Virus record (IMG/VR): IMGVR_UViG_2721755662_000006 | Length of the DNA stretch: 46,008 bases | Source of the DNA: a virus | Lineage: Duplodnaviria; Heunggongvirae; Uroviricota; Caudoviricetes | Direction: 5' to 3' (one strand) | Shown here: piece after piece, positions 21,001-27,000 of the stretch | How the letters are laid out: each line of letters opens with the position of its first letter | How positions within the stretch are numbered: position 1 is the first letter of the stretch | Program-made: the position numbers

Positions 21001-24000
21001 TGCACCACCAGCATATCAGCCGGATCACAGATGATGCCGTACACAATCCAGCCATCAATCAGCCCTTCGGTTTTCCCGGTTCGCGCAGGTCCCACAAACA
21101 CCACCGCGTCATATTCACGGGCTGATAATGTATTAATGGGGTCAATCATATAGGGCGTCAGCGATGACTCCCACGGACCGGAAGTATTGGCTCCCCGTGG
21201 TACCCGCATATAACGCCTGATGGCTTCAGCTACTGGTAACCGGCCAGGTGGGCGAAACAGCGAGGCCACTTCGCGCCAGATATCGGATGCGCGGCTATGG
21301 CTCTCGTTCACCTGATTCACATATCGGCCTCATCACAACAGTCAATGACTGCCTTTTCCAGTGTATCGCGGATCTCATCAACCACAATCTGTACTTCATT
21401 CAGTTGTGATGCGGTCCACCCCCTGTCCCTCTCCAGCCGGTCAGGCCAGGTTTCCAGTACCTGAACTATCGCTTTCACCACGACAGAAAAGGACCGCCTG
21501 ACATCACTGACTGGCACAAGCTGAACAGTTTCATGCTGAAATTTAAGACGCTCGCGCTCGGACTGATACCATGCCTTCCGATCATGTGGGTTCATCTCTT
21601 CATCTTCGGAAGTCGGTGGTTTTTCCAGCAACGAAATAATCAAATCCGTCAGGAGATACAGTTTTTTCTTTTCATTACTGCCTGGTGCAAGAGGAACATC
21701 CGCCATTCTGGCGGCAACAGTCTGCCGGTGCAGACCTGAAAGGGCTGCCAGTTGATTAATATTTAACTTCATATTTTTCAGCTCGCCGTCCATTCACATC
21801 CCTCCACATAAACCGCTGAACAAAAGTGGCTCTTTTTTTGTAAAGAAATGCCGCCATATAAAGATGTCGAACAAAAATCAACCGCAATCATCATCTTTTT
21901 AATGCTAAACACATTAAAAACAACAAGTTACACTAATGATGATGATGACGATAAAATCACAAAAATGCGCTTTTTTCCGCGCCGCCCGCCCCGTGTTCAG
22001 GCCCACCCCACCAGGAGGACCCGCAAAATGATAATGGTTATCATTTGTAATGTAGTCCGGTTTCTTCCACCATCGCACCGGACCAGCGACTATGAGGGGA
22101 CAACGCCGCGCTCCGTTAACGCGGTAAACCCCGGTGTGTATCGTTTTTGATTATCCCCGCACACTCGCGCAGAGGAGTCTCCCTGTCGGGCTGCGGTCTC
22201 TGTTAATGCAGGAATACAGCGACAATACCGCGCATGGATAATAAGGTCGCTCAACACACTGGCTGTAATGCAGCAGATACCATGCGGCATTTAGCGGCAT
22301 TCATCGTACACTCAACGGTTAGCTCTTCATTCGTGGCATTCACCTGAAAGGTCCGGGAGTGTAATTGCGTACATTTACCACTGAACGAACCTTCAACAAG
22401 AACACGACCACGCTGCAAAATACGGAACGGAATTGTTCCCTGAAAAGGCTTTACGGTTACCAGTAATTTCTTCATGCATTCTCCGGATAACAAAAATACT
22501 AGTTAATACACTGAGTGCGGATATATTCCTGCGCCCCTTCCAGCTGCTTCTGCATTGTCATCAACCGTTCTCTGAGGATGAAATAATCCCGTTCAGCGGT
22601 GTCTGCCAGTCGGGGGCCGGTTGCATTATCCACGCCGGAGGTGCCGGTGGCTTCACGCACGGTACCGTGGCAGGTGGCGTTGATCCGCAGGCGCTTACGA
22701 CCAGCGGCAACGTCAGCGCGAAGAGTTTCATTTTCAGCTCTCGCATCGGCTAATTCCCTCGAGTATTTTGCATCAAGCGCAGCAACATCACGCTGGCGCA
22801 CCTGCATGTCAGTAATGGTTGCGTTTGCCAGCTCCAGCTCTCTGGCTTTTTTATCGCGCTGCGCTTTGTAGGTGATGGCGTTATCGCGGTAATGATTAAC
22901 AGCCCATAACAGACAGACGATGATGCAGATAACCAGAGCGTAAATAATCGCGGTTACTCTTCTCACTGATCTATCCCCCAACAAGCTAATGCGCTTTCCT
23001 GGTCACGACGAATAACCTGTCCGTAGCAGTTATTTGAACGTGTGCGGCAATCACGCCCACCGTCCTTAATCCACCAGCGAATCGACTCACAGGCACCTTT
23101 ACGATCACCGGCATTAAGCCGCTTATAAAACGTCGACGGGAGACACTTACCGGGGCCAATGTTATACGGGCAGAATGACGCAATACCCGCTTTCTGGGGT
23201 TCAGTCAGTGGCACTTTGATGTTTTTCTCCACCCATGCCAGCGCCTTATCACGCTCAATGGCGTTAACCTGGTCGCATTTTTCCTTCGACAACTTCATGC
23301 CGGGGACGACAGGCTTACCATCCACCCGGGTGGCACCACGGCAGATGGTCCAGATACCCGCGCCATCACGGTATGCCGTGGTGTGGTTGCCTTCTTTTTC
23401 ATCCAGAAACTGGTCGAGGATTTCAGGCGCAGAAGCCCCTGCGGCAATCAGCGCCAGAACGGCAGCCGACAGGCCGTATTTGATTTTTGTGTTCATGGAT
23501 ATATTAAATATTCAGCCGCTGTCCCAGGCCCACTAAATACGCACTTTCAGATAAGTCAGTCTGGGATGAAGCCAGTAAGCCGGCACTTTTTTAAAAGGCG
23601 GATTATCAAAATCACGAAGAAGTGCCTCCCGCACAACTGAATCCTTGTCCGCACCACTGGCCAGCGCTTCAATCTCAGCGGCTACCTGCAGATACCCCAT
23701 GCAACGACCAATGCGCTGCATCAGCCCCTGTTTTTTATTGTTCTTCAGGTAATCAATGGCAAATTCAATGAGCGTCTCACTGTGCTGGTGCGATGGCAGT
23801 GTTACTTTTCCATTTTCTGATATGGTGATTTTCCCGTCATCACCGGATACAACAAAGGATGGCCGGTTACACTCCCATTCCAGCTCACTGCAATTATCAT
23901 TATGAATACTGAAACACTCTGCGAGATTTCTGCTCATCACTTTCCGACAATAATCGTCAAACGCAGCAAACTGCTCATCGCGGCGTTTTTTTTCATCTTC

Positions 24001-27000
24001 AGAAGGCATCAGCGCCGACAGTTTTTTATTCAGTTCAGCAATTTCATTTTCCAGACGACTGAAGCGCTGATTCATTTCTTCATGGTTCATCACCTACTCT
24101 CCCCGTGCCGCCTTACGCCGGTCCTCTCTGATTTTGAAATACAGGTTCGTCAGATATGTCAGCAGCCCAAACAGCAGACTCCCCAGCACGCCTATTGCCG
24201 CCCACTGAGACGGGGAAACCCTGTCCAGCAACTGCAGGAACCAGTAGCCCGTTCCCACCGCTGACGTGGTGTATGACACCCCTGTTGTGATTTTTTCCAT
24301 CTGGTACATACCCCGTCTCCCGCAATCCGGAAGCTCACAACAATAAAAAAGACCACCGGCACACACCGATGGTCCCTGACGCATGCTTACATCATCATGT
24401 CGCTGTCAGGTGTGGGGTCACCGCTATCTGAAGCACTCCCCTCACCCGCGATGCCTTCCGGCTCCGGAGCTGCCGGTGCGCCCAGCAGTTCATCCAGAAT
24501 GGCATCCACTTCTGTATCAAGACGCGCTTCCAGGTTATGGCGAAGTTTCTGTTTCAGTGCGCTCCGGACTTCTTCAGAGCGCAGGACGTCCTTCACTGCT
24601 TCAGCAGTGACCAGGGATGTAATTTCTGACATGGGATTTTCTCGTCGAAAGGTGTGATTAAGAAAGTTGCCGCTAAATGAGCGGCTCTTCGGGTTTGCTT
24701 CCGGCTGACTGACTGGCGCTGATTTTCTCAGCGGCCCTTTTGTCAATCTGTCTGCGCCAGAAGTCACGCATGGCCCGGTATCCACCCGAAAGGAGATACA
24801 GCACACAGACCACCGTACAGAAGTACAGCATTAACTGGTTCAGAAATGTCATAATTTCTTTCCGTTATTGTTGACAATAAGAACTGTTTTCATTTAAAAA
24901 AACAGAGTACGAAAGTATCGTTCCTTTATTTTTTCTCCATAGGTATTACCACCGCCAGTCCATTCCGGTAACTGGCGGCTTTTTTTATCATGCCGCGGCG
25001 TCCGCGTTATTCACTTCCACCGCAATGCTGTCTATCAGTACCGGGTAAGTCGCACCTCTGGTAATGTCTGTCACATGCAACTTATCCGCCGAAAATGCAC
25101 TGACCGGTGACTGCGTCAGCGTGAACGGTGTGCCATCCTGACCATCAATAACCGGCGTCACCTGAAGGCTGTTATTCCCGGCAAAGCGGAAAGCCAGCGT
25201 ATGCCATTCGTTATCAAATGCGCCAAAGCTTCCCAGTTTCAGGTTGTTTGTCGCCACTTTCGCATTGTGGTACATCACATTCAGGTCTTTTGCATCTGTC
25301 TGGATGTAAAACGCTGCCAGCAGATTATTCCCTGCATCCCCTGTCAGGGTGACACCCTGCGGCAGAGAGGAAACCGGCCAGTAAAGTGCAATGACATACT
25401 GATTTGCTACCAGTTCACCGGATGCCTTAAAGCGGCAGCTGATTAAACCGCCATTTTTCAGCAGTTCAGCGCCAGTACCGGCATCATGCTCCAGATACCA
25501 TGACCCCACTCCTGTCTCCTTGCTCAGCTTCATCGCGGTACCACCTGTTGCACCTTCATCGGCAACAATTTCCGCTTTACCTCCGCCAGCACTCCAGCCC
25601 TGTTCGGTCAGCCTCCCTTCAGACTCACTGGCACGGTAAGACAGCAGTGTTGTTGTGCTTACCGCTTCATTTTCTGACGGTGATGGCGTCGGTGCGCCAG
25701 TTTCAGAAGATGGAGCATCGACTTTTACTGTGGTTCGTCCCGCATGAATCAGAATCGCCGTTGCCAGACGGTCGGAAATAATCCCCCGGCGTGCCCAGGT
25801 GCTGAAATGGCTCGCCCTGTCCTGTGACGTCCAGGTGGCTGAGCTGTCACGCCATTTCGAACCGTAATACCCGATACCCGGAATGTCCGGGTCTTCTTCC
25901 GGTTTGTTCGTCGGCACATTCACCCCGTTCTCATCCGTCATGAACGGTACGAAATGGATATTCTTTTCCGTTTTGTTTTTATAGCTGCCGTACACCGTCT
26001 GGTACGTGGATTCGTTCTTCTGCTTCCAGAAATACGTCGTGTCCCCGCATATCCAGGGAACACCGCCAGCAGAGCCACCAACGCACTGACCTGCCATATC
26101 CGTCAGGTCTGCACGGAATTTATCAACCAGCGCACCAAACTGTGCTGCGTGATTTCCGGGCGTACCGCCAAAATCAAATTCCCCCTGCATCCACACCACG
26201 GCAAACAGCACATTTTTCGGGTTCTTCTTCAGTGCTGCTTTTGTTCGACCGATAAGGTCCTTATACAGCGGCTTGTCCACACCCCAGCGCGCTGAATTCT
26301 CCGAGGCACCGCCAGCGTCACTGTATGTGCCATCAGCTCCGGTGGTGAACGCTGAACCACCACGACAGCACGGAACCAGCAGAATACCCGCATTCGCCGG
26401 TATAAACGGCAGCAGTTTTTTGGCGATATGCAGCCCCTGCCCCACGGTTCCGTACTGCCCCTTTGACAGGTCCGCTTTCGGATGGTTAAGACGGCTCATG
26501 TCCTGCACATCATGCAGACAATGGTCCGCCGGAATGATGTCGTTATATTTGCAGGCGACACCGCCCGGTGTCACCGTACTGCGACGCGCCAGCTGCTTAA
26601 TACGCGGGTCCGGACGGTCATATGTCTCCGGCAGCGGAAGACCTTCACCATACGACATACCATTTGACTGCCCTGCCAGAACCACAACAAAGTAATACCC
26701 GGGGTCGCTGGTGGCGCTGATTACTGCACCTTCTCCACCTGTCGGCTTCACCACAACAGGTGTGCTCACATCACCTTCTGCGACAATCGCCTGAATAAGT
26801 GCTGCGCCATCATCCGTATACGAAGAAAACGGCCCACCGTATGGTTGCCATCCTTCACGAATTTTTTGCGCAAGTGCATCAGCAAGGTCTGACGGCGATG
26901 CCGCCCTGACCACATCGTAATGTTTAAATGTCATGAATCCTCCCGGCCGGGATAGTACTGAATCAGATAAAGAGCGGGCTGAAGTCCGGAAGTTACAGGA

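Follow-up and report, generated by a model that had tools for sequence, protein, structure and literature searches.

An uncharacterised 185-codon gene of family phrog_1085 between the pinholin and endolysin genes of a Stx2a prophage

The pinholin and signal-arrest-release (SAR) endolysin genes of lambdoid phages, S and R, form a textbook lysis system, yet about one sixth of complete Escherichia coli genomes contain, in or beside such a cassette, DNA resembling an additional gene. The window studied here, a stretch of 46,008 nucleotides from a virus of the class Caudoviricetes (IMG/VR record IMGVR_UViG_2721755662_000006), holds an example of this gene. It is an open reading frame (ORF) of 185 codons on the minus strand, located between S and R at 23533-24090 including the stop codon, and is called ORF185 below. 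What does a gene wired into the lysis cassette of a model Shiga toxin (Stx) phage do there? An initial annotation, made from the sequence alone, regarded the insertion as a departure from the norm and suggested either a lysis-timing regulator or a cargo gene expressed at lysis. Our analysis makes ORF185 less exceptional than first thought: inserts between S and R are not exceptional, and ORF185 is best described as a variant of a known, uncharacterised kind of gene, lacking both the domain DUF1327 and a convergent partner gene. The modules, conserved motifs and partner gene of this family are now defined. Regarding function, we favour a modulator of the late or lysis programme that acts from the cytoplasmic side, and give this reading a probability of roughly one in three.

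The initial annotation placed the ORF, its length and its position at the S-R junction correctly; the coding strand is the minus strand. The holin stop codon TAG (24096-24094) is followed by GTG (24093-24091), a possible alternative start, and then by the ATG of ORF185 (24090-24088), so that the ATG lies 3 nt past the pinholin stop. At the other end, the stop codon TAG (23535-23533) precedes the endolysin ATG at 23496 by the 36 nt that had been reported. The Shine-Dalgarno sequence GGGGAGAG lies at 24104-24097, within the final holin codons, as seen in a comparison of the junctions of the window, VT2-Sakai, locus L011 and Stx2-converting phage 86 (Stx2-86). Because this site is embedded in the 3' end of the holin gene, ORF185 must be made together with the lysis proteins, which bears out the proposed coupling to the holin. 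A scan of the coding strand between S and R found no promoter-like or terminator-like site. The product has 185 residues, a mass of 21.4 kDa and an isoelectric point (pI) of 6.0, and is hydrophilic. It has no transmembrane segment, as had been noted (the maximum Kyte-Doolittle value over 19 residues is 0.76), and no signal peptide was found.

Four observations together indicate that ORF185 is a real gene and not a chance ORF. The protein is identical to RefSeq entry WP_088888739.1, annotated as a hypothetical protein, and 168 sequence homologues were found in a collection of 5.8 billion proteins. Pairwise ratios of nonsynonymous to synonymous substitution rates (dN/dS) in the family range from 0.18 to 0.6, the value against another 185-aa allele being 0.18, and point to purifying selection on the family. 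Finally, nearly all of the 83 related loci that were examined for integrity (80 from IMG/VR and three from species-representative genomes) are intact, with the 185-aa form in 44, a 296-aa form in 28, and just a handful of frameshifted or truncated copies. The geometry of the junctions is also preserved: the start lies 3-4 nt past the holin stop in all 44 intact 185-aa loci, and R starts about 36 nt after the ORF stop in most of them. The flanking DNA has a G+C content of about 0.55, ORF185 one of 0.42-0.49. ORF185 is a genuine late gene of a Stx2a prophage, and we make these statements about its identity (gene, family and anatomy) with high confidence.

The view that S21-R21 cassettes normally contain no intervening gene does not hold. 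In the Qin prophage of E. coli K-12, the order is essQ-ydfR-rrrQ, and ydfR occupies the slot that ORF185 occupies in the window; slot genes are also present in Stx2-86, in Stx1 phages and in the functional phage PhiR12_2, in whose record K-12 is given as host. DNA resembling ORF185 was found in 879 of 5426 complete E. coli genomes, with a match spanning at least 80% of the ORF in 233 of the 879, and a single genome can contain up to five copies of the family. The resemblance to Qin extends to an S21-type holin, a 4-nt gap, a Shine-Dalgarno sequence in the holin 3' end and a SAR lysozyme that starts with MNTKI(K/R)YG. Qin YdfR (b1555, 103 aa, DUF1327/PF07041) is likewise uncharacterised and encoded in the late operon. 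However, it consists of DUF1327 and a short tail, ORF185 has neither, and the two proteins have no sequence in common; they are linked solely via long forms that bear both parts. In addition, the ydfR stop overlaps the rrrQ start, whereas the window has a 36-nt spacer.

On the other hand, the slot is empty in most sequenced Stx phages, including VT2-Sakai, Min27, P13374, phi191 and POCJ13. The R start of VT2-Sakai lies 4 nt beyond the S stop, and in such empty-slot phages the Shine-Dalgarno sequence in the last S codons (GGGGAGAG, or GAGGAGAG in K-12 Qin) serves R; elsewhere, the same S-embedded site (GGGGAGAG or GAGGAGAG) precedes whichever gene fills the slot. The N-terminus of R differs accordingly between MN(T/A)KI(K/R)YG with a filled slot and MSRKLRYG in the empty VT2-Sakai slot, and the MNTKIKYG of the window is typical for occupied slots. 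The spacer between ORF185 and R (23497-23532, minus strand) is AT-rich and has no obvious Shine-Dalgarno sequence; its length of 36 nt is identical in almost all loci that lack the partner gene described below, and RNA folding predicts the leader to be less structured than 200 of 200 shuffled sequences (z-score +2.16).

The comparison of lysis cassettes that the initial annotation had recommended thus finds the gene absent from closely related functional phages (VT2-Sakai, Min27, P13374 and others, with a holin 99% identical). In particular, the window holin differs from that of VT2-Sakai, where the slot is empty, in one residue. Since a 99%-identical holin occurs with an empty slot, ORF185 is dispensable for lysis itself.

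The annotation of slot genes in genome databases deserves a remark. In E. coli DA33137 (locus L005, 2553-3446), the Prokaryotic Genome Annotation Pipeline (PGAP) of RefSeq calls the slot gene an incomplete "YdfR family" pseudogene and leaves the remainder unannotated. Pseudogene status was ruled out for the ST131-type slot copy, in which the frame is intact across 297 codons; the PGAP call thus looks like an artefact of annotation. In about half of the sampled E. coli genome rows, there is no annotated feature beneath the match, and the artefact may affect many genomes.

To what family does ORF185 belong? The initial annotation could not place it in any, and indeed it has no match in Pfam or NCBIfam. 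In PHROGs, however, it matches phrog_1085 with E = 7e-110, residues 1-185 aligning with positions 117-296 of the 296-position profile. The missing N-terminal part of the profile corresponds to DUF1327. Homologues of 287-296 aa, annotated as "YdfR family", contain an N-terminal DUF1327 (PF07041), a middle segment and then a part that is 81-88% identical to ORF185, which in the alignment starts after the first two of these. For example, a 296-aa long form (P0035/AUZ14059.1) has a helical hairpin and a C-terminal domain homologous to those of ORF185, with about 82% identity in the shared part, and the C-terminal domain of gp05 of Stx2-86 (YP_794052.1, 268 aa) is 82% identical to that of ORF185. 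The long forms and gp05 occupy the same slot and belong to the same phrog_1085, but carry the N-terminal DUF1327 and the middle segment, both of which ORF185 lacks. Unlike ORF185, gp05 has no hairpin, contains an insert, and is followed by a convergent phrog_1853 ORF.

These relationships were summarised by BLAST searches with individual modules, denoted D (DUF1327), M (middle segment), H (helical hairpin), I (insert) and C (C-terminal domain). K-12 YdfR consists of D and a short tail, the slot protein of PhiR12_2 of D and H, and that of Stx1_499 of D, H and an unrelated C-terminus. The 296-aa form comprises D, M, H and C; gp05 comprises D, M, I and C; a 213-aa form comprises H, I and C; and ORF185 comprises H and C only. 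By this module map, the slot proteins are mosaics of five modules, of which ORF185 represents the minimal H+C form.

ORF185 resembles the YdfR family in location, having an S21-type holin on one side and a SAR lysozyme on the other within a lambdoid prophage, and departs from it in domain content: PF07041 has no match in ORF185, there is no DUF1327 gene anywhere in the window, and PF07041 is present in just six of 49 aligned family members. The invariant columns of the C-terminal domain, by which we define the core family of H/C slot proteins, are all present in ORF185. Scans of ORF185 and 48 relatives against Pfam, NCBIfam and PADLOC gave nothing beyond DUF1327 in the long forms (for the PADLOC exceptions, see below). 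The family is narrowly distributed. An exhaustive hidden Markov model search found only 42 relatives among 1.84 billion representative proteins, and a second search including these 42 identified the C-terminal domain (residues about 73-185 of ORF185) as the conserved core. Members occur in Escherichia/Shigella, in Salmonella enterica and on a few unassigned contigs from metagenomes; a scan of one genome per species (185,579 species) found three loci only, all in Escherichia/Shigella. A Salmonella homologue also matches phrog_1085 (E = 1.2e-25), and the N-terminal domain of the Salmonella proteins is a remote relative of DUF1327 (hhalign probability 90%, E = 1.4e-6). Because the D-to-C architecture is common to E. 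coli and Salmonella, it is probably ancestral.

Two further loci illustrate how the modules are rearranged. In E. coli O178:H19 (locus L003, 2222-2741), the 185-aa gene precedes a separate 75-aa DUF1327 gene, a reverse 95-aa ORF (phrog_10490) and then R; this is a split arrangement of modules that the long forms fuse. In the window, a 74-aa ORF at 22254-22475 (minus strand), directly downstream of Rz, is the RefSeq hypothetical protein WP_000735655.1, which shares 48% identity across 61 aa with the N-terminal domain of P0134. The latter is a protein of 181 aa whose C-terminus is module H as in ORF185; module H is therefore joined to at least two different N-terminal domains.

The anatomy of the protein was examined by structure prediction. 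A first AlphaFold model, based on 21 close relatives, had a predicted local distance difference test (pLDDT) score of 53 and was unusable. A second model (AlphaFold2, AF2), based on 49 sequences including Salmonella and metagenomic relatives, reached 82. In this model, module H (residues 1-62; 23905-24090, minus strand) is an N-terminal antiparallel helical hairpin, with helices at residues 3-27 and 31-60 and a pLDDT of 85-95 for residues 1-40. The module, which is also supported by module BLAST and by matches to phrog_2091 and phrog_15975, recurs behind DUF1327 in PhiR12_2, Stx1_499 and the 296-aa form. The hairpin is compatible with the N-terminal coiled coil of the initial annotation, though it does not prove one. 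An acidic linker of low confidence follows (residues 63-72; 23875-23904, minus strand; pLDDT below 50 for residues 58-69), and it is here that longer alleles bear an insert of 28-36 aa.

Module C (residues 73-185; 23536-23874, minus strand) is a conserved alpha/beta domain and the core of the family. It contains the motifs GR-x-MG-x-LQ-x-AAEIE and DFDNPPFK-x2-P-x2-W-x2-PG-x-YLK-x-R, and residues G128, R129, L134, Q135, P164, P165, K167, W173 and P176 are invariant. The domain is basic (pI 8.6), and is modelled as a compact unit of three short strands (79-97) and four helices (101-117, 123-144, 151-161 and 176-184) with a pLDDT of 85-96. A Foldseek search of the model against PDB and BFVD returned nothing below E = 0.2. 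In a profile search of PDB sequences, the PhoU homologue 1sum_B (E = 0.021, per-domain E = 4) and 8tch_A (E = 0.09 over 25 residues) were judged to be chance matches. The fold and profile searches of PDB and BFVD also gave no similarity to an RNA-binding fold. On this evidence, the predicted C-terminal domain is without a recognisable relative of known structure.

The cysteines, which had been described as a cluster C-x11-C-x6-C-x6-C, are indeed four in number in this region (48, 59, 67 and 74, with a fifth at 130), but their spacing is C-x10-C-x7-C-x6-C, and they do not behave as a motif, since only C48 is kept in most relatives and the cluster falls in or beside the low-confidence linker. 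At least 90% of alignment A1 retains C48, which is nearly invariant among E. coli relatives. C59, located just before the linker, and C67, located in it, are replaced in most divergent members, C67 being phenylalanine in the 96%-identical relative P0002, while C74, just after the linker, is missing in one sub-branch of E. coli alleles. C130 is invariant in E. coli and is Ser or Ala in remote relatives. A zinc finger or other Cys4 zinc-binding site was considered, and is ruled out by the unconserved cysteines and the low-confidence linker; the cluster is not a metal-binding motif.

We next consider the genomic context of the family outside the window. In E. coli, the family gene always lies between S and R. 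In Salmonella, it lies downstream of Q and upstream of the holin, in the order family gene, reverse ORF, S, R. On an unassigned contig (L010), the next gene is a hydrophobic 189-aa ORF, apparently a membrane protein, with S (holin) and R (lysozyme) after it, and on contig L109 the family gene lies upstream of a reverse ORF and a GH108 endolysin. The family gene therefore stays close to lysis genes throughout these four arrangements, which involve two endolysin types. In the late region of one Salmonella enterica locus (L008, 2157-3469), the family gene has immediately upstream of it an ArtA-like gene, with faint matches to Pertussis_S1 and Scabin-like domains, and a 106-aa ORF.

In several lineages, the family gene is followed by a convergent ORF of 104-107 aa, which belongs to phrog_1853 and has no Pfam match. 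It occurs with the 213-216-aa E. coli alleles, in Stx2-86 (gp06), in Salmonella and in three remote metagenomic homologues, the coordinates being, all on the minus strand, 3652-3966 in L016, 3661-3975 in L019, 2858-3172 in L001 and 4599-4916 in L008, and, for the metagenomic loci, 585-902 in L107, 436-759 in L108 and 495-812 in L109. In L107 and L108, the two genes overlap at their 3' ends, the distribution of phrog_1853 is as narrow as that of the C-domain family, and the Salmonella members have locus tags consecutive to those of the C-domain proteins. This suggests that the C-domain gene and phrog_1853 form a two-gene module. A simple scan for a consensus promoter of the partner ORF in L016 found none. 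The window has no phrog_1853 homologue anywhere, and in the partner's place there is the 36-nt spacer. Among E. coli genomes, 94 contain the partner compared with 879 that contain ORF185-like DNA. Since the partner-less alleles are intact and constrained, they must have some function without a partner in cis. It is conceivable, though we consider it unlikely, that the pair is an unrecognised two-gene module of enterobacterial lambdoid prophages that controls premature lysis or conflict between co-resident prophages, with late expression of one gene and expression of its partner, on the other strand, presumably during lysogeny, with a C-domain of new fold, and that ORF185 is its orphaned functional half.

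What, then, might ORF185 do? ORF185 is translated from the Q-dependent late mRNA via the holin-embedded Shine-Dalgarno sequence, that is, the site that the endolysin uses when the slot is empty, and R is displaced to an unstructured leader without an obvious Shine-Dalgarno sequence. The product is a soluble cytoplasmic protein of 21 kDa. Under the reading that we favour, its hairpin may mediate oligomerisation or partner binding and its conserved C-domain may bind a cytoplasmic target. It would not execute lysis but modulate it, by holding the cytoplasmic termini of the pinholin or via another late component. The persistent location of the family next to lysis genes, in its four arrangements, keeps a lysis-timing regulator in play as a hypothesis. 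Dispensable lysis regulators are also known as precedents, namely, T4 RIII and P2 LysA/B. If ORF185 adjusts when lysis occurs, or how much endolysin is made, in Stx prophages, the amount of Shiga toxin released per induced cell would depend on it.

Several observations weigh against a lysis modulator. The holin does not co-vary with the content of the slot: the window holin is 100% identical to that of Stx2-86, which has a different slot gene, and a nearly identical holin thus works with an empty slot, with ORF185 or with another slot gene, which gives no sign of co-evolution. The Salmonella holin beside the family shares only 45% identity and differs in its cytoplasmic tail. The Q-S-R region is a classic place for late-operon cargo (stx, nanS-p, artAB), so that the neighbourhood alone is weak evidence, and the heavy shuffling of modules would sooner be expected of conflict genes than of timing regulators. 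Moreover, ORF185 has no match to known lysis regulators in the PHROG "lysis" category, in Pfam or in structural searches, and, because it lacks DUF1327, the RNase E data discussed below are not directly applicable to it.

Those data belong to a different explanation, in which ORF185 is a host-takeover factor acting on RNA metabolism; the C-domain would be the effector, DUF1327 would deliver the long forms to RNase E, and the H+C form would work either by itself or with a DUF1327 protein from another prophage. K-12 YdfR (DUF1327) binds the N-terminal half of RNase E in two-hybrid and pull-down assays and co-purifies with RNA (PMC13232886), the fusion of DUF1327, H and C is probably ancestral in E. 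coli and Salmonella, the O178:H19 locus has an H+C gene followed by a separate DUF1327 gene, and the C-domain is basic. The window contains no DUF1327 gene to play this part, however, overproduction of YdfR barely altered the transcriptome (PMC13232886), and the searches with the C-domain gave no likeness to any RNA-binding fold; we regard this explanation as doubtful. Similar doubt attaches to the idea that the slot is a hypervariable site for genes of inter-phage or phage-host conflict, ORF185 being an anti-defence protein or an antagonist of a phrog_1853 partner expressed in the lysogen, and surviving as an orphan that neutralises partners from co-resident prophages. The mosaic of swappable modules, the moderately high dN/dS values (up to 0.6), the deep conservation of the convergent pair (E. 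coli, Salmonella and the three remote metagenomic homologues, with the 3' overlaps in L107 and L108), the presence of up to five family copies per genome and a G+C content below that of the flanks, which suggests an imported module, would all fit. Against this, no defence family in PADLOC-DB matched ORF185 (two marginal single-member matches occurred among 49 relatives), early defences would already have acted by the time of late expression, the partner is rare in E. coli and yet its absence leaves alleles intact and constrained, and the simple scan did not detect a promoter for the partner. If either of these two explanations were true, the slot would be a new hotspot carrying a domain that lacks a structural relative.

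Less probable still is that ORF185 is a functionless remnant, that is, a long YdfR-family gene truncated at its 5' end that happens to retain an ATG behind the holin Shine-Dalgarno sequence. The absence of the family's N-terminal domain, the loss of the convergent partner and the frameshifts in several structural genes of the prophage (RefSeq annotation; see below) would be expected of such a remnant. However, the H+C form has its own conserved N-terminus, MNHEEMNQR, and is intact in 44 independent viral or genomic loci at 85-99% identity; its dN/dS is 0.18 against another 185-aa allele; and standalone C-domain genes exist among the remote relatives. We consider it very improbable that ORF185 is a cargo released at lysis to act outside the cell, like the Stx or NanS-p encoded upstream. 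It shares the late operon with stx2a and nanS-p, a Salmonella homologue adjoins the gene for an ArtA-like ADP-ribosyltransferase, and the protein has five cysteines; but it has no signal peptide or transmembrane segment, its cysteines are unconserved and lie partly in a disordered linker, and searches of Pfam, NCBIfam and folds gave no likeness to a toxin, enzyme or adhesin. The suggestion of the initial annotation that ORF185 is cargo expressed at lysis thus finds no support.

ORF185 can also be compared with other accessory genes of phages. T4 RIII is a small cytoplasmic helical protein that acts on the cytoplasmic domain of the holin, and T4 RIII, P2 LysA and LysB, and P1 LydB are non-essential proteins whose genes lie within or next to the lysis cassette and are expressed along with those for holin and endolysin. 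The soluble, helical nature of T4 RIII recalls module H, which would be an analogy rather than membership, as no sequence or fold similarity was detected between any of these proteins and ORF185. The late-operon cargo genes and morons of lambdoid phages (stx, nanS-p, bor, lom) resemble ORF185 in being accessory, in being missing from close relatives, in their lower G+C content and in their location in the Q-to-Rz region. ORF185 differs from them in having no promoter or terminator of its own within the scanned S-R coding strand, in being translationally wired to the holin across a gap of 3 nt, and in having no export signal. The protein, its family phrog_1085 and the slot (as ydfR) are already in databases. 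Literature searches on the S-R slot, DUF1327 and lysis-cassette hotspots returned only the study of the interaction of K-12 YdfR with RNase E (PMC13232886), and we found no paper dealing with the S-R slot or the C-domain, or describing the gene pair.

The remaining features of the window concern the prophage as a whole. The 1.8 kb that were compared (window 22900-24700) are 100% identical to the chromosome of E. coli FORC_069, where the matching stretch lies in a Stx2a-converting lambdoid prophage. All late genes are on the minus strand, in the order stx2AB, nanS-p (DUF6645/SASA), DUF1378, DUF826, the S21-type holin, ORF185, the SAR lysozyme and Rz/Rz1. The holin gene (24094-24309; PF04971, E = 9e-33) encodes a class II holin, or pinholin, of 71 aa with a dual start at Met1 and Met4, and the endolysin gene R (22963-23496; PF00959, E = 4e-25) encodes a GH24 lysozyme. 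The i-spanin gene Rz follows at 22499-22966 (PF03245, E = 5e-50), and the o-spanin gene Rz1 is embedded in it at 22561-22746; both are supported by the ORF list and the RefSeq annotation. Between DUF826 and the holin start, at 24348-24377 on the minus strand, there is a strong terminator-like hairpin of 13 pairs with a T-run behind it, which would limit entry into the lysis cassette to Q-antiterminated transcripts. Finally, the FORC_069 annotation, transferred with an offset of +2899, marks as frameshifted the genes for tail tip protein J, a tail protein and a prohead protease/major capsid fusion, at about 3276-6970, 13038-13785 and 15517-17541 of the window; this may reflect either a prophage defective for virion production or homopolymer errors in the assembly.

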